Positions 707 to 55,328 of a DNA stretch of 60,216 bases are shown here, piece after piece. The notes beneath the pieces are model-generated. The model made no database searches, had not been told where the DNA came from, and saw only the letters and a list, made by a program, of their open reading frames with translations. The stretch is from assembly GCA_947624705.1 (NCBI GenBank), contig CANQLL010000001.1, positions 1 to 60,216 on the forward strand. Direction: 5' to 3'. Both the position numbers and the translations under genes were made by a program. Positions within the stretch are counted from its first letter, which is position 1, and each line of letters begins with the position of its first letter. The stretch comes from an uncultured Bacilli bacterium. GTDB lineage: Bacteria > Bacillota_I > Bacilli_A > RF39 > UBA660.

Positions 707-3700
707 ATGAAAAATTTTAAAGAGTTAGACAAAAGAAAAGTAAGTGAAGTAGAAGAATCGATTTCTACTTCTTGGCAAAGCGTTAATGTTATGCACGATA
801 AACAAGTAAACTTGCGAAGTAAAGATAAAACCTTTGTCTTTTATGATGGGCCAGCTTTTGCCAATGGTTTTCCTGGTTTACATCACATGGTATCTAAAAA
901 TTTAAAAGATACAATAACTAAATATCATGTTATGAATGGCCAAAAAGTAATTCGGAAAATTGGTTGGGATACCCATGGCCTACCAATTGAAAATCATGTT
1001 GAGAAAAAATTAGGTATATCTTCTAAAAAAGAAATTGAAGCTTTAGGAGTAGCTAAATTTAATCAGGAATGTCGCAACAGTGTGCGCGAAAATGAAAGTG
1101 CTTTCACCAATTTAACTAGGAAAATGGGCCAATTTTTTGATGTTGAACATCCATATTTAACTTATAAAAATGAATATATTGAAACCGAATGGTGGATTTT
1201 AAAAGAAATGTTTAAAAAAGATATGTTCTATGAAGGAACACGCGTTGTTCCTTATTGTCCGCATTGTGGAACAGGCCTTGCCACCCATGAAGTTGCTCAA
1301 AATTATCAAACTGACACGGCCATTACGGTTTATGTCCCTTTTAAGAAAAAAGATGAAGATATTTACTTTTTAGTTTGGACCACTACCCCTTGGACTTTAT
1401 GTGCTAATGTCGCTTTATGTGTTCATCCTGATTTAGATTATGTTTTAGCCGAATCAAAAGGAACAAAATTTATCTTAGCAAAAAGTTTAGTGAATAAAGT
1501 TTTAGGGGAAGAAGCAAAAGTTTTAGATACTTTTAAAGGTAAAACTTTAGAATATCAAGAATATGAACAATTAATTGATTCTTTTGAAGTTGATAAAAAA
1601 GCGTTTTATGTAACCTGTGATGATTATGTCACAGCCGAAGACGGAACTGGTATTGTTCACATTGCGCCGGCTTTTGGTGAAGATGATGCTAATGTCGGTA
1701 AAAAATATGATTTACCATACCTAAATCCCGTTGGTAAAGACGGTTGTTATGTGGGCGGATTATGGGACAAAAAGTTTGTTCATGATGTTAATGAAGAAAT
1801 TGTTGCTTATTTAAAAGAAAATGGTAAATTATTTAAACGTCAAAAAGTATCGCATGAATACCCACATTGTTGGCGTTGTGATACTCCTTTAATTTACTAT
1901 TCAATGCCAAGTTACTATATTAAAGTTTCCCACATGCGTGATGATTTAGTAAAAGCCAATGCTAAAGTTAATTGGTATCCGGCTTATGTAGGCGAAAAAC
2001 GTTTTGCCAATTGGTTAGAAAATGCGCGGGATTGGAATGTTTCTCGGAGTCGTTACTGGGGTAGTCCAATACCTTTTTACAAATGTAGTTGTGGACATAC
2101 CCATATGATTGGTTCGATTGCCGAGTTAAAAGAAATGGCTACGACTAAAGTAAATGATGATTTAGATTTACATAAACCATATATTGATGAAATAAAAATT
2201 AAATGTCCAAAATGTGGGGGCGAAATGAAGAGAATTGCCGATGTTTTAGATTGTTGGTTTGATTCTGGTTCAATGCCTTTTGCGCAATATCATTATCCTT
2301 TTGAAAATAAAGAATTATGGGAAAGTCAATTTCCAGCTGATTTCATCTGTGAGGGTATTGATCAAACACGGGGTTGGTTCTATACTTTAATGGTTATTTC
2401 AACTTTCATTAAAGGGTGTTCACCTTTTAAAAATGTTTTAGTTAATGATTTACTTCTTGATAGTGAAGGTAAAAAAATGAGTAAATCTAGAGGCAATATT
2501 GTCGAACCATTTACAACTATTAAAGAATATGGGGCTGATACCGTAAGATTTTACCTTCCTTATGTTTCACCCGTTTGGACTCCTTTAAAATTTGATATCG
2601 CTGGTTTAAAAGAAGTTTATTCGAAATTCTTTAATCCTTTAAAAAATACTTATAGTTTCTTTTGTACTTATGCTAATATTGATAAAATCGAAACTGATGA
2701 TTGTCAAATTGCTTATGAAAAAAGAGAAGAAATTGATAAATGGTTATTATCTAAATATAATCGTTTAGTTAAAAATGTTCGGGCTTCTTTTGATGAATAT
2801 GATTTAAATAAAGTAGTACATTTCTTAGCTAACTTTGTTTCTGATGATTTATCAAATTGGTATATTAGACGTAATCGTAATCGTTTTTGGCAAAGCGAGT
2901 TTAATGATTCGAAAAAAAGTGTTTATATTACAACTTATGAAGTATTAGTGGGTTTAGCCAAACTAATCGCCCCAATTACACCATTTATATCGGAAGAATT
3001 ATATCGTAATTTAACTAATGAAGAATCAGTTCATTTAACTGATTATCCAAAAGTTAACCAAAAATTAATTAATGAGACAATTGAGACCAAAATGGATTTA
3101 GTTCGCGATTTAATTAGTATCGGTCGCCAAGCCCGGGAAGAGGCAAAAATTAAAGTGCGTCAACCATTAAGTGAAGTTATTCTTGATGGCAAGAATAAAA
3201 ATATTTTAAAAGATTTAGTGGATTTAATTAAAGAAGAATTAAATGTTAAAGAAGTTATCTTTGAAGATGATTTAGCTAAATATATGAATTTTACAATTAA
3301 ACCTAATTTTAAAACAGCTGGACCAATTTTAGGAAATCATATTAAAGATTTAGTTAATCTTTTAAATAATTACACCGAAGAACAAATAATGGAACTTAAA
3401 AATAACCAAGAACATTATTTAGAAATAGAAAAACAAAAATATCCAATTACTTTAGATATGGTTGATATCCGAATTAATTCTAAAGAAGGTTTTGATGTTG
3501 GTACGAATAATAATGATTTTATTATCTTAAATACGAATTTAACTCCAGAATTAATTGAAGAAGGTATAGCGCGAGAATTTATATCTAAAGTTCAAAATTT
3601 ACGGAAAACTAAAGATTTTGACATTGAAAATCGCATTAACATATTATTTAATGCTAGTGAAGATTTAAAACAAGCGATTTTCAATAATTTAGATTATATT

Positions 3701-3805
3701 AAAGGAGAAACTTTAGCTGTTAATTTAGACTATACAAATGAAAAACAAAATGATATTATAGACATTAATAACAACGAGGTAAGTATTACGATTAAGAAAA
3801 TTTAG
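707..3805 (+). CDS. ileS: Isoleucine--tRNA ligase, type 2 (about 1030 aa form)
   Basis: 1032-aa ORF with a class I HIGH-like segment (PGLHHMV), KMSKS, the CP1 editing region and typical IleRS blocks (WDTHGLP, GWFYTL). Preceded by an Ile T-box. Confidence 0.97.
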   Translation: MKNFKELDKRKVSEVEESISTSWQSVNVMHDKQVNLRSKDKTFVFYDGPAFANGFPGLHHMVSKNLKDTITKYHVMNGQKVIRKIGWDTHGLPIENHVEKKLGISSKKEIEALGVAKFNQECRNSVRENESAFTNLTRKMGQFFDVEHPYLTYKNEYIETEWWILKEMFKKDMFYEGTRVVPYCPHCGTGLATHEVAQNYQTDTAITVYVPFKKKDEDIYFLVWTTTPWTLCANVALCVHPDLDYVLAESKGTKFILAKSLVNKVLGEEAKVLDTFKGKTLEYQEYEQLIDSFEVDKKAFYVTCDDYVTAEDGTGIVHIAPAFGEDDANVGKKYDLPYLNPVGKDGCYVGGLWDKKFVHDVNEEIVAYLKENGKLFKRQKVSHEYPHCWRCDTPLIYYSMPSYYIKVSHMRDDLVKANAKVNWYPAYVGEKRFANWLENARDWNVSRSRYWGSPIPFYKCSCGHTHMIGSIAELKEMATTKVNDDLDLHKPYIDEIKIKCPKCGGEMKRIADVLDCWFDSGSMPFAQYHYPFENKELWESQFPADFICEGIDQTRGWFYTLMVISTFIKGCSPFKNVLVNDLLLDSEGKKMSKSRGNIVEPFTTIKEYGADTVRFYLPYVSPVWTPLKFDIAGLKEVYSKFFNPLKNTYSFFCTYANIDKIETDDCQIAYEKREEIDKWLLSKYNRLVKNVRASFDEYDLNKVVHFLANFVSDDLSNWYIRRNRNRFWQSEFNDSKKSVYITTYEVLVGLAKLIAPITPFISEELYRNLTNEESVHLTDYPKVNQKLINETIETKMDLVRDLISIGRQAREEAKIKVRQPLSEVILDGKNKNILKDLVDLIKEELNVKEVIFEDDLAKYMNFTIKPNFKTAGPILGNHIKDLVNLLNNYTEEQIMELKNNQEHYLEIEKQKYPITLDMVDIRINSKEGFDVGTNNNDFIILNTNLTPELIEEGIAREFISKVQNLRKTKDFDIENRINILFNASEDLKQAIFNNLDYIKGETLAVNLDYTNEKQNDIIDINNNEVSITIKKI

Positions 3806-8688: not shown

Positions 8689-8713
8689 AAATCGATAGCT
8701 TATATCGATTTTT
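8688..8713. terminator. Bidirectional terminator between alaS and the Fic/Doc remnant
   Basis: AAATCGATA (8689-8697) pairs with TATCGATTT (8703-8711), flanked by A- and T-runs. Confidence 0.65.
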
Positions 8714-8758
8714 AATTTGCTTTTAATCTGCAACACTATTATTTATTTTTGCTTTTTA

Positions 8759-9432
8759 TTATTTCCGATTCAAATCAATCCCATCAATGCTAGTATCATA
8801 AATCCATTGTTTTAAATCTAAATTATCTCCTGTTTCATAAAATTTAGTTAATTTTTCAAAGAATATTGGTTGATTTTCTTGTGAAATAGTTATTATTCCA
8901 CAACCATTGTCAATCATTATTTTATTAACAAATAACGTAGCAACTCTTTTATTGCCATCAATAAACATTTGTCTTCTCATAATCCAAAGCATTATTTCAA
9001 TAGCTATTTCCGTTTTTGTTTTTTCCGGTTGATTTAATAATTCTTTTAGTTCTTCTTTTATTTGACTTTCAATAGGAAATTGAGGTTTCCAAAATGTTCC
9101 CCAATATTTACAGGTGTACTTCTTAATTTTCCTAAATCTTGATCTAAAACTAATTTATCACAAGTTAATTTATGTAAATGGCTTAAAGCTTTAAAATCAT
9201 AATTTATATCATTGTTTTCCAGTATAAATTCCCAAGAATATTTTAAATTATTAATAGCAATGATGTTATTAACAATAAGTCCATTAACAACACCACCATC
9301 ATATATTACTTGAGTTTCTTGATATGTAACGTCAATACCATCTAAATTAGCACTTTTCCAAATATAATCTACAATATTTCTTTTTGCTACAAATATATTT
9401 TATTCTCTTGTTAAATTAAATTTATTTTTCCT
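8759..9432 (-). pseudogene. Fic/Doc family protein gene, disrupted
   Basis: The C-terminal ORF 8759..8992 carries a degenerate Fic/Doc core (FIDGNKRVATL). Hand translation upstream gives Fic-like sequence (AKRNIVDYIWKSANLDGIDVTYQETQVIYDGG...QDLGKLRSTPVNIG). It is interrupted by an in-frame TAA near 9390 and a frameshift at the C/G run near 9098-9101. Confidence 0.7.
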
Positions 9433-9749
9433 AAAAATTTTCTCCTACCATTTAATGTAAATAAAATCCAAAGTGGTTATTAGCTTTACAGGTAAAGTTT
9501 TTAGGATTTAAAACTAATTTATTTTCTAACTTATATTAGCACAGGAATGAATTCTATGCAATTAATTGGGCAGCTTTATTATAACTTTAAAAAACGTAAA
9601 ATCAAAAATTAAATTCTCAATTTAAGAAAAATATAAATTTATCCTAAAAATGAATTTTAGCCTAAAATTTGAAAACAAAAAACGTTTTTCTGGTTAGCAA
9701 AAAAAGCTTTTTAGCACGATTTTTGAAGCTAAAATCCATTTTTAGCAAT

Positions 9750-9778
9750 TTGCTATTCATTTTTAAATATGGTAATTT
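9750..9778 (+). promoter_or_regulatory. Extended -10 promoter of small-peptide module 1
   Basis: TTGCTA (9750-9755), 17-nt spacer ending in TG-n, TAATTT (9773-9778). The inferred start is at GGATGCA (9786). Confidence 0.45.
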
Positions 9779-9844
9779 TTGAGACGGATGCATTGAAGCA
9801 CCCGGACTAGTGTTTTCCTTAATTTTTAAGGAGGGCTGATAATT

Positions 9845-9916
9845 ATGCGAGAAAAATTTTTTTATCAAGTAATTATTGTGCTACTTTTGCTAGCACTAAT
9901 ACTACTTACTATTTAG
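9845..9916 (+). CDS. 23-aa hydrophobic peptide MREKFFYQVIIVLLLLALILLTI (candidate type I toxin)
   Basis: ATG 9845 to TAG 9914-9916, with AAGGAGG at 9828-9834. The SD lies inside a perfect 7-bp hairpin, TCCTTAA (9816-9822) with TTAAGGA (9826-9832). Below the ORF-track size cut-off, and paralogous to the peptide at 19978..20055. Confidence 0.5.
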   Translation: MREKFFYQVIIVLLLLALILLTI

Positions 9917-9991
9917 TAGAAGCTAGACATCTTAGATTTTTCAACTAAACAACTTAGATTTAACATAATATTGGTTTGGTTGATACATTTT

Positions 9992-10083
9992 AAAATAAAT
10001 TAAAAGAGCACCGAATGCCACAGGGGGTCATACGGTGCTTTCCCAAGAAGGAAAGCACTAGGCCTTAAAGGCTTTGTGTATCC
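9992..10083 (-). ncRNA. Candidate antisense sRNA of module 1 (about 90 nt)
   Basis: TTGACT (10119-10114), 18-nt spacer, TAAAAT (10095-10090). The start is near GGATACA (10083). Two hairpins compete for AGCAC: 10035-10043/10050-10058 and 10006-10012/10033-10039. The distal one is followed by CTTTTAATTTATTTT on the minus strand. Confidence 0.4.
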
Positions 10084-10191
10084 ATTTCCATTTTAATATA
10101 TATTTTTATTTAAAGTCAATAAAAATAATACTCAAAAATTTTTTATTTGGAAATATAGACTAAAAACATAATCATTATAATTTTAAATATT

Positions 10192-11214: not shown

Positions 11215-12281
11215 TTTATCACCTCAAATGCTTGACCATTTCGATTTACTTCTAAATTTACTTCAACTTTATAATTTAAATCTTTCCAACTATTTTTAGA
11301 ATAACTTTTAGGATAAGTTCGATAAACTAAATTTCTTATGCCTAAAAAATCACTATTAAGTTCAATTGATTTTTCCACTAATTTTTGAATATCTTTTTTT
11401 ATTAATTTTGCAAAATCTTGCGATAGTTTTTTATTAATTTCCCCATTTCTTAAAACATATTTTTCATTTAAACATCTAACTAAAGCCTCAGCATTAACTT
11501 TTATATAAACAGTATTATCTTTTAAAGATATTTTACTTTTATTTTTATAAATAGATATGGCAATATTTTGTTTACTATATAAAGCATTATCAACTTGACT
11601 AGTTAAAAGATTAAAGGTTTGACTTTCAGTTGGCGTAAGATAAGCAATTAACTTGTCTTTAATAAAAGCTCCGGATGTATATAAAGCAATATTTTTATCT
11701 TTGATTTGAATAGAAGGAATAATAATATCACTTTTATTATCTTTCATTTGCACGTAGAGATAATCAAACTCATCATGTAAATCAAAGATTTCAACATCAT
11801 TTTGATTTTTAAATAAACCCATAATAGCATCACTAACTATTGGTTGATTTTTAATTTTCGTATTTAAAACTTTTTGAATCGTAGTATCTTTAACTAAAAC
11901 ATAATAGAAATTATTACTAATATGAATATCTCGAAATAAATAATTAGAAATATGAGTTATACCTTCTTTTTGGGCTAAGTTTTCTTCTAATAAAACAATT
12001 TGAACATGGTCAAAAACAACCTTTTTATCAACTTGACTAATTGTATCGTTAAAAGCCCGAGCAGGGTTAGTTCCGGAACCCGTTACTAACATAGTTTGAC
12101 TTTCTTCTTGCTGCCCGCTATCGTTTTTTTTCGTTACAATTATTTCAAAAGTTACTTCATATTTATTCTTGTTATACCCAACGCCAATAGCGGAGACGAT
12201 AGCGGTGTCATTAAGTTCGGTATAATCATAACAACCAGTTAATAAAAACAAAGATAGTAAAATTAAAATGATTTTTTTCAT
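11211..12281 (-). CDS. Ger(x)C family spore germination lipoprotein
   Basis: Lipobox LLTGC followed by the family N-terminus YDYTELNDTAIVSAIGV. 356 aa, sitting between the A and B subunit genes. Confidence 0.85.
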   Translation of the reverse strand: MKKIILILLSLFLLTGCYDYTELNDTAIVSAIGVGYNKNKYEVTFEIIVTKKNDSGQQEESQTMLVTGSGTNPARAFNDTISQVDKKVVFDHVQIVLLEENLAQKEGITHISNYLFRDIHISNNFYYVLVKDTTIQKVLNTKIKNQPIVSDAIMGLFKNQNDVEIFDLHDEFDYLYVQMKDNKSDIIIPSIQIKDKNIALYTSGAFIKDKLIAYLTPTESQTFNLLTSQVDNALYSKQNIAISIYKNKSKISLKDNTVYIKVNAEALVRCLNEKYVLRNGEINKKLSQDFAKLIKKDIQKLVEKSIELNSDFLGIRNLVYRTYPKSYSKNSWKDLNYKVEVNLEVNRNGQAFEVIN

Positions 12282-13711
12282 TTATTTTCCCCCTGACTTA
12301 TAAAATTTTTATCAGTTAACATTTTACTTCGCAACCGGTCTTTAGCTTTGGGTTTTTGATATAATTCTTTTCGTAAATAATTTAAATCAAATGGGGCAAA
12401 AGGATAAGAATAAGGTTTATCATAAGAAGTTGTATTACATAAATGGGTTAAGAAAATTACGCCTGCTACAACAATACCAAATAAACCAAAAAAGGAAGCT
12501 GCTAACAAAAATAAGAAACGAAAATGCCGAATAGAATTAATAAATTCCAGTTCGGTAAAGATTAAAGAAGTTATGAAAGTTAAAGCGACCACAATAATCA
12601 TAATGGGCGAGACTATTCCGGCCGTAACGGCAGATTCACCCAAAATTAATGCCCCTAGAATCGAAATTGAACTGCCATAAGAAGAGGGAAAACGAATGTC
12701 ACTTTCTCTTAAAACTTCACAAATTAAAAGCATAAATATCGCCTCAATGGCGGCGGGGAAAGGAACACCATCTCGTTGCGTAGAAAAACTAACAAGTAAA
12801 TTAAGGGGAATAACCTCCGGGTTATAATTAATAATAGCAATATATAAAGCCGGAACTAAAATAGTTAAAATTAAACAAATAAAACGTAAAACTTTTAAAA
12901 AATTGATATTAATACTTTTACTATAATTATCAACTTGGGGATTAATATAATCGGCAAAAAAGACTGGCATTATTAAAGCAAAAGGGGAAGTATCAACTAA
13001 AATAACAATTCGCCCTTCTAACAAATTGGAAGAAGCATAATCCGGTCTTTCGGTGGCTCTAATTGTTGGGAAAGGGGATTTATTTTCTTTTTCTAAAAGT
13101 TGATGAATATTGCCGGCATCAATAATGCCGTCAATATCAATTGTTTCTAATTGTTGTTTAATTTTATTAACAGTTTTTTCTTCAGCTATATCTTTTAAAT
13201 ATAAAACACTAACTTTAGTAGAAGTTTTTCTGCCTATAATAAAATCTTCATTAATTAATGTATTAGATTTAATTCTTCTTTTAATTAACCCTAAATTATT
13301 TTGTATATTTTCATTAAAAGCATCTTTCGGTCCATAAATGGCCGGTTGAGTTTCTGGAGTAGATATACTTCGGGATATATCAGCTTTAACCTCAACCGCA
13401 TATACTTCATGATGATAAATAATTAAAACAAAACCATTTGTTAAAAAATAAGCTAATTGATCATATTTTTTAACTTCAACAGTTGTGGGTCCAGCTATTA
13501 AAGATTCTAAATTTTTTCCATTTTTTTTATTAGTTAAAGAAAGTTCTTTTAAAACATAATCATTAATTTTATCACTACTAGAAACACTTTCTAAAAATAA
13601 AACATATATATCATTAACCTGTTTAATAATTAAATCACTGGTATTATTAAATTCTTCTTGCAAACGCTTAACTATTTTATTCATAACCTCACCATTTGTT
13701 ATTCTAAGCAT
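12278..13711 (-). CDS. Spore germination protein, GerAA/GerKA family
   Basis: 477 aa. Soluble N-domain plus C-terminal membrane domain with family blocks (RSIStPEtqP, GPkdaF, DGVPFPaaiEa). The true start may be the internal MNKIVKRL. Confidence 0.85.
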   Translation of the reverse strand: MLRITNGEVMNKIVKRLQEEFNNTSDLIIKQVNDIYVLFLESVSSSDKINDYVLKELSLTNKKNGKNLESLIAGPTTVEVKKYDQLAYFLTNGFVLIIYHHEVYAVEVKADISRSISTPETQPAIYGPKDAFNENIQNNLGLIKRRIKSNTLINEDFIIGRKTSTKVSVLYLKDIAEEKTVNKIKQQLETIDIDGIIDAGNIHQLLEKENKSPFPTIRATERPDYASSNLLEGRIVILVDTSPFALIMPVFFADYINPQVDNYSKSININFLKVLRFICLILTILVPALYIAIINYNPEVIPLNLLVSFSTQRDGVPFPAAIEAIFMLLICEVLRESDIRFPSSYGSSISILGALILGESAVTAGIVSPIMIIVVALTFITSLIFTELEFINSIRHFRFLFLLAASFFGLFGIVVAGVIFLTHLCNTTSYDKPYSYPFAPFDLNYLRKELYQKPKAKDRLRSKMLTDKNFISQGENK

Positions 13712-19165: not shown

Positions 19166-19798
19166 ATGTTAAATGATAATAATCGTCAAGAATTAATTGC
19201 TAAAATAGAAAAATATCGAGAAGCGGGTTATGATCAAAGTAAATTATTAGAAATTGAAAAAGAAATTATTTGGTTTGAAAATCCCGAATTATCTTTATAT
19301 TTTGCGAAAAATATTAAAGATAGTGATATAGCAGTTCATAAAAGTATTGTTTGCCAAAGTAAAAATGCCAATTTGATGTGGGAATTCATGCAAAAAGTCT
19401 GCTTATGTGGTGAGTATCGAAATGAGTTAGCCGCTCATATAATTGATACTAATGATGAACATTTTATTGCTTTATTATGTGAAGATGATCAAATAAGTTC
19501 TATAATAAGAGAAAATGCTATAAAATGGTTGCTTAATAATGGTCATAAATTTCACATTTATGATTATCTAATAGGAAATGGTGAGTACATTAATAGTAAT
19601 GGCGATTATATTGATAATGATAGAATTTGTACTAAAATGATTAAAAAAATTTATCAAGATTTAACTGATGCTGAAAAAGAACATTTACGTTATTTATATC
19701 CTCTTACTATGCAAGCAATTGAAAAAACGATAGAAGAAAATGAAGCATTTAATGATATACAAAAATTGGTTAAAGCGATAAAACCAATAGAAAGCTAG
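19166..19798 (+). CDS. Hypothetical protein
   Basis: 210-aa ORF with an AGGA SD. No motif recognised. Confidence 0.45.
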   Translation: MLNDNNRQELIAKIEKYREAGYDQSKLLEIEKEIIWFENPELSLYFAKNIKDSDIAVHKSIVCQSKNANLMWEFMQKVCLCGEYRNELAAHIIDTNDEHFIALLCEDDQISSIIRENAIKWLLNNGHKFHIYDYLIGNGEYINSNGDYIDNDRICTKMIKKIYQDLTDAEKEHLRYLYPLTMQAIEKTIEENEAFNDIQKLVKAIKPIES

Positions 19799-19892
19799 TT
19801 TTAAAATGGCTGTTCGAAACAAAAAACAGCTTGTAAAACAATTATTTTTATGATACTATGAATATGTCAAGGAAACTTGCATAAAATAAAAA

Positions 19893-19984
19893 GGATACAT
19901 TTGATTGGGTGAATCAGATGTTATCCCTTAATTGGGTTTCATCTGAAATCAACGGTTGTTGAAATCAGATGTTTTTGCTATTTT
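19893..19984 (+). ncRNA. Candidate antisense sRNA of module 2 (about 90 nt)
   Basis: -10-like TAAAAT (19882-19887), start near GGATACA (19893). TCAGATG (19914-19920), CATCTGA (19940-19946) and TCAGATG (19965-19971) can form alternative pairings. The terminator hairpin 19940-19953/19958-19971 plus T-tract overlaps the stop codon of the peptide ORF on the other strand. Confidence 0.45.
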
Positions 19985-20055
19985 AGAAGTAAAATAATTA
20001 CTACTAAGAATAGGAGTAATATTATAATAAATTGAGAAAATTCTCTCTTTGTCAT
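19978..20055 (-). CDS. 25-aa hydrophobic peptide MTKREFSQFIIILLLFLVVIILLLK (candidate type I toxin)
   Basis: Internal ATG at 20055 of the 73-aa track ORF, preceded by AAGGTGGTGG (20070-20061). An ungapped alignment to the 9845..9916 peptide gives identities at M1, F6, Q8, I10, I11 and L13-15. Confidence 0.5.
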   Translation of the reverse strand: MTKREFSQFIIILLLFLVVIILLLK

Positions 20056-20131
20056 AAATACCACCACCTTTCTCTTATCGTTTGATAATTGAAAGGGAAA
20101 GCATCTGATAAATTCAAATGTATCCACAAGC

Positions 20132-20160
20132 ATTATATCAAACAAATGTTTTAAAAACAA
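20132..20160 (-). promoter_or_regulatory. Extended -10 promoter of small-peptide module 2
   Basis: Minus strand TTGTTT (20160-20155), 17-nt spacer, TGATATAAT (20140-20132). Inferred start at GGATACA (20125). Confidence 0.5.
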
Positions 20161-20360
20161 TATTTTTTCTAAATTTTTTGTTGCGTTTTTATTTAACATT
20201 TAATTATCAAATTAACTTTTAAAAATAATCATTTATAATAAAATGTAACAAAAAGAAGGAGAAAAAATATCTAACATTATTCTTACTTATCAATTAAAAA
20301 CAAAACAAGCTTAAATACTAGTTAAAACTAGTATTTTTTGTTATAATCTTTAAGAAGGAT

Positions 20361-51252: not shown

Positions 51253-51281
51253 TTGTATAAAGAACAAATGTTTGACATAAT
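51253..51281 (+). promoter_or_regulatory. Extended -10 promoter of small-peptide module 3
   Basis: TTGTAT (51253-51258), 17-nt spacer, TGACATAAT (51273-51281). Inferred start at GGAATGCC (51289). Confidence 0.45.
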
Positions 51282-51342
51282 TGTTTTAGGAATGCCTAGT
51301 TAGTCTGGGTACTATTCTCCTTTTCTTTTTAAAGTGGAAGTT

Positions 51343-51441
51343 ATGAAAAAAACAGAGAAATATCTTTGTACTATCATAATACTCCTTAATCTTAATATTG
51401 TGATTTTAATCTTACTTATAAAAATAGTACCAACTGGATAG
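51343..51441 (+). CDS. 32-aa hydrophobic peptide MKKTEKYLCTIIILLNLNIVILILLIKIVPTG (candidate type I toxin)
   Basis: ATG 51343 to TAG 51439-51441, with a weak GGAAG SD. Charged N-terminus followed by a single TM-like stretch. Same module architecture as the loci at 9.8 and 20.0 kb. Confidence 0.4.
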   Translation: MKKTEKYLCTIIILLNLNIVILILLIKIVPTG

Positions 51442-51497
51442 GTCGGTACTAATCTAAGATTTGGAATAGTACCTAACTCAGCAAAATTAGGTATTCC
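51418..51497 (-). ncRNA. Candidate antisense sRNA of module 3 (about 80 nt)
   Basis: Minus-strand TAAAAT (51509-51504), start near GGAATACC (51497). Hairpin 51470-51476/51487-51493, then hairpin 51426-51431/51445-51450 followed by ATTTTTAT on the minus strand. It overlaps the peptide stop codon. The promoter block is 30/32 identical to that of the module 2 sRNA. Confidence 0.45.
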
Positions 51498-51541
51498 TTT
51501 TTTATTTTATGCAAATTTCTTTGACATATTAATCATAACAT

Positions 51542-51597
51542 AAAGACGACTTTTTTGACAAGTCGTCTTTTGCTATACTCGAAAGTTCGAGTTTTTA
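51542..51597. terminator. Two hairpins between module 3 and tRNA-Arg
   Basis: AAAGACGACT (51542-51551) pairs with AGTCGTCTTT (51561-51570). ACTCGAA (51577-51583) pairs with TTCGAGT (51586-51592), followed by TTTTT on the plus strand. Confidence 0.5.
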
Positions 51598-51602
51598 TCA
51601 AT

Positions 51603-51679
51603 CTGGCGTCCACAGTAGGATTCGAACCTACGACCGTACGCTTAGAAGGCGTATGCTCTATCCAGCTGAGCTATGTGGA
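51603..51679 (-). tRNA. tRNA-Arg (anticodon UCU)
   Basis: The reverse complement folds as a cloverleaf. Acceptor GTCCACA/TGTGGAC, D-arm GCTC-AGCTGGATA-GAGC, anticodon stem TACGC/GCGTA with loop CTTCTAA, T-arm GTAGG-TTCGAAT-CCTAC, and an encoded CCA. Confidence 0.93.
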
Positions 51680-51795
51680 CGTTTTTGCATTTGCAAATTG
51701 ATTATATCTTAATTTACTAAGATTTTCAATAACAATTTGCAATCTTTTTTAGGATTGTCTTAAAATTTAATTTTATACGTAAAAAAACTATCTTT

Positions 51796-53774: not shown

Positions 53775-55328
53775 ATGGGAATTTTTACATCACCCATTGT
53801 TTCTCTTTTGATTGGAATTTTAGCAGGTTCAGGACTTGTTGTGTTGATTGTTTTCATTCGAAACAATCAACTTGAAAATAAAGCTAATAAATTTTTAGAA
53901 AATGCCAAAAAAGAAGCTGATAAACATAAAAGAGATTCTTTACTAGAATTAAAAGAAGAATCTTTCCGTTTAAAACAAGAAACTGATAAAGAAGTTAAAG
54001 AAAAGAAACAAGAAATTGCACTTAATGAAGATAAATTAATGCAAAGAGAAGCAAGTTTAGATAAAAGAGAAGAAATGCTTCAAAATCGAGATTCTTTATT
54101 AGATCAAAAAGATAATAATTTATTAGCTAAACAAAAAGAATTACAAGAAAAAGAAGAAAAAATGGATGAACTATTAAAACAAGAAATAACAGAATTAGAA
54201 AAAATAGCAAAATATTCGAAAGAAAAAGCTCATGATGAAATCATGAAAAGAGTCGAAGAGACAATGGCTAAAGAAATTTCAAGTTATATTAAAGAAGAGG
54301 AAGCCAAAGCTAAATTAGAAGCTCATGAAATTGCTAAACAATTAATTGTGGGTAGTATGCAAAGATATGCTGGAGATGTTACTAATGAACAAACCGTTAG
54401 TACGATTGAGCTTCCTAATGATGAAATGAAAGGTCGTTTAATTGGACGAGAGGGTAGAAATATTCGTTCAATTGAAGCCGTAACGGGAGTAGATTTGATT
54501 ATTGATGATACTCCTGAGGCCATAGTTATTTCTTCATTTGATCCATTAAGAAGAGAAATGGCTAAGATAACAATTGAAACATTAATTAAAGATGGTCGTA
54601 TTCACCCCACAAGAATTGAAGAAGTTTACGAAAAAGTAACTAATGATATGAATACGAAAATTACCCAAATTGGTAATGAAGCTATTTATGAATTAGGTTT
54701 AACTAAAGTTGAACCAGAGTTAGTTAATTTAATTGGTAAATTACATTTTCGGACTAGCTATGGTCAAAATGCTTTACAACATTCCAAAGAAGTTGCGCAT
54801 TTATGTGGTTTAATGGCTAGTGAATTAGGCGAAAAGGTGGCTTTAGCTAAACGTGCGGGTTTACTTCATGATATTGGTAAAGCCATTGATTTTGAAGTTG
54901 AAGGAAGTCATGTGGAATTAGGCGAAATGATAGCAAAAAAATATCATGAAGATAAAGTAGTTTTAAATGCGATTATGTCGCATCATGGAGATACCGAACC
55001 TAATTCAGTTATATCGGTTTTAGTTCAAGTAGCTGATACTTTATCTGCAGCTCGACCTGGGGCACGAAATGATTCGCTTGAAAATTACATCAAACGATTA
55101 GAACAACTAGAAGAAATTGGCTCTTCTATGGGAGGTGTTGAAAAAACTTATGCGATGCAAGCGGGACGTGAACTTCGGGTTATAGTACGTCCAGAAGAAA
55201 TAAGTGACCAAGAAAGCCATAAGATTGCTCGGGATATTAAAGCTAAAATTGAAGAAGAAATGCAATATCCAGGAACTATTAAAATTAATGTTATAAGAGA
55301 AACAAGGGCAACAGAAGAAGCAAAATAA
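53775..55328 (+). CDS. rny: Ribonuclease Y
   Basis: N-terminal TM, long coiled coil, KH domain (GRLIGREGRNIRSIE) and HD domain (LLHDIGKA, HHGD). Confidence 0.97.
   Translation: MGIFTSPIVSLLIGILAGSGLVVLIVFIRNNQLENKANKFLENAKKEADKHKRDSLLELKEESFRLKQETDKEVKEKKQEIALNEDKLMQREASLDKREEMLQNRDSLLDQKDNNLLAKQKELQEKEEKMDELLKQEITELEKIAKYSKEKAHDEIMKRVEETMAKEISSYIKEEEAKAKLEAHEIAKQLIVGSMQRYAGDVTNEQTVSTIELPNDEMKGRLIGREGRNIRSIEAVTGVDLIIDDTPEAIVISSFDPLRREMAKITIETLIKDGRIHPTRIEEVYEKVTNDMNTKITQIGNEAIYELGLTKVEPELVNLIGKLHFRTSYGQNALQHSKEVAHLCGLMASELGEKVALAKRAGLLHDIGKAIDFEVEGSHVELGEMIAKKYHEDKVVLNAIMSHHGDTEPNSVISVLVQVADTLSAARPGARNDSLENYIKRLEQLEEIGSSMGGVEKTYAMQAGRELRVIVRPEEISDQESHKIARDIKAKIEEEMQYPGTIKINVIRETRATEEAK

Follow-up and report, generated by a model that had tools for sequence, protein, structure and literature searches.

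A putative type I toxin-antitoxin-like cassette with a 3'-overlapping antisense RNA and predicted pairing of the mRNA ends in an uncultured Bacilli bacterium

We analysed a 60,216-nucleotide stretch of DNA from an uncultured Bacilli bacterium (contig CANQLL010000001.1, positions 1 to 60,216; hereafter referred to as the window) and focused on a small element at positions 19,831 to 20,160, one of three related elements in the window, which will be referred to as module 2. In our judgement, module 2 is probably a type I toxin-antitoxin-like cassette of a family that is in no curated library, in which an antisense RNA overlapping the 3' part of a peptide mRNA would be combined with a closure of the mRNA 5' end on its 3' end of the kind described for hok and aapA. 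The functions that this assigns (toxicity of the peptide, antitoxin action of the antisense RNA and the nucleases involved) we infer from sequence. Judged from its fold and its relatives, the conserved and unannotated combination of a small-peptide gene with a predicted antisense RNA gene is real and not due to chance, because the predicted 242-nt sense RNA folds at -77.8 kcal/mol compared with -36.9 +/- 4.1 for shuffled sequences (z = -10), with its ends closed on each other, and because the whole arrangement recurs at 19 other loci. The predicted features are collected in Table 1.

Relatives of module 2 were obtained from three sources. First, 80 fmt-centred loci of related genomes were scanned for short hydrophobic open reading frames (ORFs) preceded by a Shine-Dalgarno (SD) sequence, which yielded modules of the same architecture at loci L056 (n = 3), L066 and L072, all with an unusual GGTGGTG-type SD. 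Second, a protein search with the 73-aa ORF that covers the peptide gene of module 2 returned five other called ORFs, in which the C-terminal 25 residues are near-identical and the N-terminal parts differ in length, sequence or frame; the DNA of the matches was then fetched. Third, a single scan of metagenomes added 13 loci; its pattern was anchored on nothing but the SD, the start codon and the residues MTKRE, and was thus independent of the repeats described below. Pair counts for RNA elements were made on alignment A7, which holds the 13 distinct full-length module-2-type sequences and includes diverged members (the L087 group and L089).

The substitution pattern of the 25-aa ORF on the minus strand indicates that it is a real gene under purifying selection. 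Across six distinct ORF sequences, variable sites fall on codon positions 1, 2 and 3 in the ratio 9:2:14 and the length is invariably 25 codons, and the ratio of nonsynonymous to synonymous substitution rates (dN/dS) is 0.05-0.25 in diverged pairs (for module 2 versus L082, dN is 0.054 and dS is 1.08). We base the gene assignment on this coding-type pattern together with the broken state of the upstream frame in relatives, where the part of the 73-aa ORF that precedes the peptide contains stop codons (L085), lies in another frame (L083 and L084) or is replaced by unrelated sequence (L086). The 73-aa ORF, which is annotated as a gene in public data, is thus, on this comparison, a gene-calling artefact, and the proposal of the first-pass annotation of this DNA that a real 25-aa peptide is hidden inside a spurious frame is borne out. 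The error is concrete, correctable and recurs across metagenomes: extended ORFs are called instead of the true peptides, the called proteins at family loci are these misleading extensions only, and the exact peptide of module 2, like all ten family peptides tested, is absent as a called protein from a collection of 15 billion sequences. The peptide itself, MTKREFSQFIIILLLFLVVIILLLK, has a charged head followed by a single 19-residue uncharged hydrophobic stretch. Six family peptides searched against Pfam and NCBIfam gave no significant match, a P...G motif is present in 0 of 10 family peptides and the C-terminus carries at most a single Lys.

The minus-strand promoter, transcript start, SD and ORF all lie where the first-pass annotation had placed them. 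The pattern TTGnnT-17-TGnTATAAT, followed by 6 nt and then GGATACA, is conserved in every module-2-type copy that retains the sense 5' region, and we predict that the sense promoter is of the sigma-A type with an extended -10. GGTGGTG is common to the SD of most family members, with GGAGGG in module 1, and the SD of module 2 is predicted to be mostly paired; the CCCTTTC box (20097-20091) can pair with it. Exactly two copies of the 12-mer GGATACATTTGA are present, inverted relative to each other (19893-19904 on the plus strand and 20114-20125 on the minus strand), which confirms the repeat reported earlier for these two sites; the 12-mer is the outermost portion of a ~35-nt imperfect inverted repeat. 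Read on the minus strand, the 3' copy of this repeat makes up the mRNA 3' arm and the terminator hairpin, after which comes TTTTTATTTT (19892-19883); read on the plus strand, it makes up the 5'-proximal hairpin of the predicted antisense RNA. A simple consensus scan for promoters and terminators gave 18 promoter-like sites versus 14.8 expected and 0 terminators, and left the promoters and terminators of module 2 unflagged. The -35 is weak and the A+U-rich stems contain mismatches; it is therefore conservation, and not the scan, that supports these signals.

Separately, an A+T palindrome, TGTTTTTAAAACA, overlaps the sense -35 region of module 2 (20146-20158), and in L056-type modules a palindrome, GAATTTTAAAATT(C/T) (L056 10963-10976 and 12409-12422), overlaps it likewise, after a conserved TAGGGG. 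Such a palindrome may serve a DNA-binding regulator as its operator or be simply an UP-like element.

The first-pass annotation had described three modules in the window and had suggested a covariance-model scan for further copies. Covariance model R1 of the sense unit, built from 16 sequences with modules 1 and 3 excluded, recovered module 1 (41.2 bits, expectation value E = 2e-5), starting exactly at 9786, and found a third copy at 51289-51463 (35.8 bits, E = 1.7e-4). A covariance model was needed, since nhmmer searches with each module against the window detected neither the other modules nor the third copy; peptide-pattern and inverted-repeat scans of the intergenic regions of the window likewise missed module 3. 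The fold of module 3 closes the 5' end on the 3' end (z = -5.8), and closure is predicted for module 1 too. The eight identities in 23 ungapped positions that had been listed between the peptides of modules 1 and 2 are there, but as evidence of paralogy the alignment fails (P = 0.27 when the charged-head and hydrophobic-tail design is preserved), and the case for paralogy of the modules is made by the RNA/DNA-level model and by their common architecture.

Model R1 found no extra copies in the 80 fmt loci, and the two closest relatives, L001 and L002, keep the fmt promoter block and have no module there, so the family is patchily distributed. Its copies lie in contexts that are unrelated to one another. 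Further, we note that some copies are decayed or rearranged: in L086, L091 and L097, unrelated sequence replaces the sense promoter and 5' element, and the ORF, the 3' element, the plus-strand terminator and the antisense -10 with its mini-hairpin are kept, and in L092 the ORF is truncated to 18 codons. Three copies in 60 kb, unrelated contexts, empty sites and decayed copies are typical of type I toxin-antitoxin loci. They also bear on the alternative, which we consider rather unlikely, that module 2 is a gene for a non-toxic small membrane protein (e.g. a transporter or envelope regulator) with a structured mRNA, the level of which is tuned by a cis-antisense RNA. Our results concern gene structure and not function, the peptide has no toxin-family match, and the neighbours of module 2 are ordinary chromosomal genes, with no transposase, integrase or other mobile-element gene near it, all of which would suit such a gene. 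What it accounts for less well is the presence of three diverged copies in 60 kb, their patchy occurrence and partial decay in unrelated contexts, and the predicted combination of a heavily sequestered translation start with a dedicated antisense RNA unit, traits that together are hallmarks of type I loci and not of housekeeping small proteins (PMC8594479).

Several observations concern the surroundings of individual copies. Module 3 adjoins tRNA-Arg(tct) (51604-51680). Two spacer hairpins, ACGACTTTTTGACAAGTCGT and ACTCGAAAGTTCGAGT, followed by a convergent tRNA gene are found after module 3 (51540-51603) and in L088, L093, L096, L097 and L099; the loop of the first spacer hairpin contains the antisense promoter -35, and the tRNA identity differs between these copies (Arg-tct, Leu-caa and Thr-ggt), a pattern suggestive of hot spots near tRNA genes or of transfer together with the tRNA flank. 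In L056 (10994-12638), two near-identical modules, with a one-residue difference between their peptides, lie on either side of a single 346-aa ORF (11329-12369) without a Pfam family, an arrangement that looks like a duplication or an insertion bracketed by modules, and L072 has one module at the same post-fmt position. Beside module 1, in the gene-poor region 8689-9780, a 77-aa ORF fragment on the minus strand (8759-8992) without a Pfam match contains FIDGNKRVA, which we take to resemble the Fic/Doc active-site motif, so that the fragment may be the remnant of a Doc-type toxin; ~1 kb around it looks like decayed minus-strand coding sequence. Plasmid and phage collections searched by blastn contained no similar DNA, and no viral contig matched the ORF-anchored pattern.

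Convergent with the peptide gene lies a predicted antisense unit overlapping the 3' part of the mRNA, and this claim of the earlier annotation is upheld by the homologues at both ends of the unit. At the downstream end, the T-tract is on the plus strand only in 13 of 13 distinct homologues and the stem is 96.8% paired, with 7 pairs changed on both sides (0 of 500 shuffles as high); because the minus strand has no T-tract, the terminator is predicted to act in one direction only. The segments TCAGATG, CATCTGA and TCAGATG (19914-20, 19940-46 and 19965-71, plus strand), which had been singled out for their alternative pairings, are present, as is the overlap of the terminator with the stop codon. 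At the upstream end, promoter P1 has a -35-like hexamer (TTGnnA in most), 17-18 nt and TRTGnTAnnAT in every homologue for which upstream sequence is available, even where the DNA beyond it is unrelated (compare L083 and L084), and the mini-hairpin at the 5' end of the P1 transcript shows the compensatory variants GAAG..CTTC (L085, L087 and L089) and TGGAA..TTCCA (L092). The start at 19893 that had been deduced from TAAAAT (P2) fares less well: P2 has neither a -35 nor a correctly placed TG, varies in two homologues (TATAGT and TAGAAT) and doubles as the sense U-tract; its position corresponds to that of the antisense -10 of module 1 and of L056-type modules. Because the P1 promoter is complete and better conserved and is followed by the covarying mini-hairpin, a start near 19866 is probably used in preference to 19893, both being possible, and an antisense RNA started there would therefore not begin with the 12-mer.

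The predicted antisense RNA is fully complementary to the 3' untranslated region (UTR) and stop codon of the mRNA, with a perfect overlap of ~100 nt (19883-19984), given the predicted ends. Its fold has z = -3.6 for the ~119-nt P1 form and z = -4.3 for the short form, which consists of the 5' hairpin and the terminator, and the plus strand at the antisense unit contains no ORF of at least 20 aa. It is very unlikely, in our estimate, that module 2 comprises a peptide gene only, with plus-strand signals that are by-products of mRNA 3' structures and a repeat that serves as end protection and terminator. The absence of a significant promoter excess and of terminators from the consensus scan of the region would agree with this, as would the coincidence of TAAAAT with the sense U-tract. 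However, a functionless plus strand would hardly keep a complete antisense promoter in every homologue, unrelated flanks included; a T-tract confined to the plus strand means that 19940-19971 cannot terminate the sense RNA; its stem covaries; and the plus-strand signals, together with the 3' element, persist in the three decayed copies that have lost the sense promoter.

Upstream of module 2, a 210-aa gene without a Pfam family match ends at 19798 and is followed by a weak hairpin, GCTGTT..AACAGC (region 19800-19830), that runs into the -35 of the antisense promoter. Transcription past the end of this gene could contribute to transcription of the antisense strand.

The first ~31 nt of the predicted mRNA are complementary to the last ~35 nt, and this complementarity is kept by compensatory changes. 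The resulting 5'-3' closure (25 pairs) is 94.2% paired, with 10 pairs changed on both sides compared with 3.9 +/- 1.3 in shuffles (0 of 500 as high); controls with slid partners are 32-45% paired, and the outer helix is 98.7% paired. The pairing of the mRNA ends that the first-pass annotation had proposed is therefore well founded, but its fold-back logic does not extend to a sole long-range fold, as local hairpins formed from the same arms are almost equally supported. The local 5' hairpin is 97% paired, with 8 G.U versus 1 A.C variants, and the local 3' hairpin, which is usable on both strands, is 89% paired with balanced variants (4 G.U versus 5 A.C). In the closure, 11 G.U versus 4 A.C variants are seen on the sense strand, and the G.U bias of the closure and of the sense 5' hairpin points to selection on the sense RNA. 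The helix between the CU box and the SD is 93.8% paired, with 0 pairs changed on both sides and G.U-type changes only. Closure and local hairpins are probably alternative conserved folds of the sense RNA; our reading is that the local hairpins would be available during transcription and the closure only after the 3' arm is made, in the order described for aapA3 and hok, in which local hairpins form during transcription and the long-distance interaction later (PMC6733600).

It is scarcely credible that the inverted repeats merely bound a miniature mobile element, or reflect concerted evolution at the DNA level, with no RNA role and the peptide ORF as cargo. In favour of this, the arms evolve in concert and the copies occur in many unrelated contexts, several adjoining tRNA genes of different identity. 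Against it, homology extends past both arms into the two promoters, which makes the arms internal and not terminal; the predicted transcription start coincides exactly with the beginning of the arms; DNA-level identity would not bias mismatches to sense-strand G.U (11 versus 4); and no transposase or integrase gene is nearby.

Partition-function calculations on 14 homologues indicate what the closure might do. The 5' end is unpaired to 0.04 in the full-length mRNA, 0.41 when the antisense RNA is bound (3' UTR blocked) and 0.26 when the 3' arm is removed; the corresponding values are 0.03, 0.03 and 0.03 for the AUG and 0.17, 0.10 and 0.12 for the SD, and removal of the 3' arm in silico thus opens neither of the latter. 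Because it mainly hides the 5' end and AUG/SD accessibility barely shifts, the closure looks, in these models, like an end-protection or stability device and not like an SD mask of the hok/aapA kind. A pseudo-SD in the 3' arm that titrates the anti-SD box, which would make antisense binding an SD switch, was considered and rejected, as SD and AUG accessibility barely changes between the states.

The cassette could then work as follows. The minus-strand promoter, a strong one, would drive a ~243-nt mRNA, the sole conserved coding capacity of which is the 25-aa peptide and for which the 3' hairpin would serve as terminator, and the convergent plus-strand promoter would drive a ~90-120-nt antisense RNA ending at its own terminator on the stop codon. 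During transcription, the 5' hairpin, the pairing of the CU box with the SD and a helix between the SD/AUG region and the ORF would hold the message untranslated; once the transcript is complete, its ends would zip together and bury the 5' end, giving a stable, inert message. The antisense RNA would pair with the 3' UTR, forming a ~100-bp duplex that would be a substrate for RNase III, and its binding would displace the closure and expose the 5' end, whereupon the message would be degraded. Should the level of antisense RNA fall, some messages would be opened or trimmed and translated, and the peptide would insert into the membrane. We note that the window contains a gene for RNase Y (53775-55328), which is among the nucleases that could act on the module RNAs.

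A number of points weigh against the cassette being what we propose. The peptide, a candidate membrane toxin by its sequence, resembles no known toxin family. The start of the antisense RNA is ambiguous between P1 and P2, and both transcripts and all four of their ends are predictions from sequence. No conserved complementarity of the antisense RNA to the ribosome-binding region was found beyond chance (z from -1.7 to +0.5), and a par-like interaction in trans, in which the antisense RNA would pair with the 5' UTR or the ribosome-binding site, was rejected because it is no better than in shuffles. With respect to the folds, the two local hairpins use the same four arms as the closure and are 92.9% paired with 7 pairs changed on both sides; the helix between the SD/AUG region and the ORF is 94% paired and nearly invariant, and thus uninformative and unproven; some of the covariation could be mimicked by the two repeat copies evolving in concert; and the kinship shared by the 13 sequences means that the shuffle counts overstate significance. 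Further, T-tracts are present on both strands at the terminator that follows the ORF in the more distant L056-type relatives, so that the mRNA there probably lacks the 3' arm, and the inverted copy is nevertheless kept and stays in step with the sense 5' element. The repeat must therefore have some role besides the closure; from this comparison, either it must also be important as the 5' domain of the antisense RNA itself, or read-through transcripts must be important.

These L056-type relatives also limit how far the proposal may be taken. It is possible, though we hold it only tentatively because the L056-type mRNA probably ends before the maintained inverted copy, that the antitoxin gene is an inverted duplication of the leader and that the antisense RNA competes with the leader for the mRNA 3' arm. 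An mRNA closed end to end would then be opened by strand displacement, with both ends exposed to RNase III and 5'-end-dependent nucleases, and one four-arm element would act as mRNA terminator, end-protection device, antitoxin 5' hairpin and antitoxin target. If true, this would describe a family that is widespread in uncultured Mollicutes-like gut Bacilli yet invisible to annotation.

The window is a complete contig with 26% G+C, and its Fmt is at most 76% identical to the Fmt of metagenome-assembled genomes (MAGs) of uncultured gut "Bacilli/Tenericutes", e.g. "Mycoplasma sp. CAG:956". Because the contig carries genes for spore-germination and sporulation proteins, AlaRS, Fmt and RNase Y, and because of these Fmt matches, it is chromosomal DNA of an uncultured, probably spore-forming, low-G+C Firmicute. 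On the far side of module 2, a perfect 11-bp hairpin, AAATACTAGTT..AACTAGTATTT, followed by a T-run (20313-20350) overlaps the fmt promoter TGTTATAAT; it is kept just upstream of fmt in L001 and L002 despite their different upstream genes and might serve either as a terminator or to regulate fmt. Elsewhere in the window, a T-box leader of the ordinary type (464-671) precedes an ORF at 707-3805.

Table 1. Predicted features of module 2 and of the related modules 1 and 3, in window coordinates.
Feature	Position	Strand	Description
Sense promoter	20132-20160	minus	-35 TTGTTT 20160-20155; 17-nt spacer; extended -10 TGATATAAT 20140-20132
Predicted peptide mRNA	19883-20125, ~243 nt	minus	GGATACA (7 nt after -10) to T-tract past 3' hairpin; predicted ends
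5' element	20091-20125	minus	arm 1 GGATACATTTGA 20125-20114; arm 2 ATCAGATG 20109-20102; CU-rich box CCCTTTC 20097-20091
SD	20061-20074	minus	long, GAGAAAGGTGGTGG; GGTGG core 8 nt before ATG
25-aa ORF	ATG 20055 to TAG 19980-19978	minus	encodes MTKREFSQFIIILLLFLVVIILLLK; candidate membrane toxin
73-aa ORF	19978-20199	minus	extends the peptide ORF in frame across that ORF's 5' UTR and promoter; spurious
3' element	19893-19929	both	inverted copy of the 5' element
Antisense terminator	19940-19984	plus	stem 19940-19953/19958-19971 and TTTTTGCTATTTT; tail overlaps peptide stop codon
Antisense promoter P1	19831-19859	plus	-35 TTGTAA 19831-36; 17-nt spacer; extended -10 TGATACTAT 19851-59; predicted start ~19866
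Mini-hairpin CAAG-GAAA-CTTG	19868-19879	plus	5' end of P1 transcript; present in fold
P2 (-10 of the first-pass annotation)	TAAAAT 19882-19887	plus	5 nt before GGATACA; weaker antisense-promoter candidate
Predicted antisense RNA	19866-19984	plus	candidate antitoxin; ~119 nt from P1, ~92 nt if started at 19893
Module 1	9750-10119	plus	sense promoter TTGCTA 9750; start GGATGCA 9786; peptide 9845-9916 MREKFFYQVIIVLLLLALILLTI
Module 1, 3' parts	~10005-10036; 10047-10083		antisense terminator stem; inverted 3' element
Module 1, antisense promoter	10119-10090	minus	TTGACT-18-TAAAAT
Module 3	51253-51561	plus	promoter TTGTAT-17-TGACATAAT; start GGAATGCC 51289; peptide 51343-51441 MKKTEKYLCTIIILLNLNIVILILLIKIVPTG, 32 aa
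Module 3, 3' parts	51497; 51561-51532	minus (promoter)	end of 3' arm, then T-tract; P1-type antisense promoter

Type I systems are lineage-specific and routinely missed, and in the literature searched we found no report of one from uncultured low-G+C gut Bacilli ("Tenericutes"/CAG-type MAGs), the lineage that carries this cassette. No Rfam family reaches threshold at the module 2 locus, and a permissive scan gave only chance-level matches (E above 2). The class is defined by an mRNA of ~150-400 nt for a small (20-60 aa) hydrophobic protein (PMC8594479), and module 2, with a predicted 243-nt mRNA, a 25-aa ORF and one 19-residue uncharged stretch, is within these sizes. For the antisense RNA that the class also calls for, module 2 offers a candidate, a unit complementary to the 3' UTR that is delimited by a conserved promoter and a one-directional, covarying terminator.

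In the design of its peptide, module 2 appears similar to ShoB/Ibs-type toxins of E. coli, which are ~19-26 aa long, with a short polar or charged N-terminus and a Leu/Ile/Val helix that runs to the C-terminus. Their antisense layouts differ, OhsC being divergent and non-overlapping and Sib spanning the whole ORF (PMC8594479), and they belong to another phylum, with no sequence relationship to module 2 detected. With par (Fst, RNA I and RNA II) of Enterococcus faecalis pAD1 and the Fst/Ldr group, module 2 shares convergent promoters and terminator overlap. Fst RNA I is stabilised by a helix that hides its extreme 5' end, and a stem-loop sequesters its SD (PMC7472228); module 2 would do likewise, hiding its 5' end by means of its 3' end, which would give the closure a role like that of the 5' upstream helix in Fst RNA I. 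The Fst/Ldr peptides have PXXXG and a charged C-terminal tail, whereas the module 2 family has neither and does not match Fst models. In par, direct repeats (DRa/DRb) give complementarity at the ribosome-binding site, whereas the repeats of module 2 are inverted and the two RNAs are of the same sense there; and the par terminator is bidirectional, whereas that of module 2 and its 13 close homologues is one-directional, the distant L056-type terminator being bidirectional.

The 5'-3' long-distance interaction is shared with hok/Sok of Enterobacteria and aapA/IsoA of Helicobacter, in which it is preceded by metastable hairpins (PMC6733600). Further likenesses are CU-rich, SD-masking local hairpins, which could form first in transcription, and support from covariation (PMC6733600). 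In hok/Sok and aapA/IsoA, however, the antisense RNA targets the 5' or translation-initiation region, whereas in module 2 it covers the 3' arm of the closure, opposite the 3' UTR; the 3' element of hok/aapA itself masks the SD or a translational coupling site, whereas the closure of module 2 is predicted to hide the 5' end. Their hosts are Gram-negative, and their peptides and RNAs are unrelated to those of module 2.

In genetic layout and host phylum, we regard the TxpA/RatA and BsrG/SR4 group of Bacillus subtilis (also BsrE/SR5 and YonT/SR6) as the closest match. These systems are likewise convergent, with the antisense RNA placed on the 3' side, perfect and extensive complementarity with the toxin mRNA at its 3' end and a small hydrophobic peptide, and the very long SD of module 2 is like that of txpA (PMC8594479, PMC8167048). 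There is no sequence similarity in either peptide or RNA. Further, in the Bacillus toxins the transmembrane segment is N-terminal and the C-terminal tail is charged, whereas the 25-aa peptide of module 2 has a charged N-terminus and a hydrophobic C-terminus, and the antisense RNA of module 2 overlaps the stop codon only and not the ORF. The reviews consulted report no conserved pairing of the mRNA termini in these families, whereas such pairing is predicted for module 2. The 3'-overlapping layout, with duplexes cleavable by RNase III, is known in Gram-positive families (PMC8594479, PMC8167048) and 5'-3' closure is known in hok and aapA (PMC6733600). Overall, the module 2 cassette would join two principles so far described in different bacterial groups, with the antisense RNA sitting on the closing arm, and at ~330 bp it is compact, with alternative folds that suit the study of mRNA end-pairing, termination and antisense control together.

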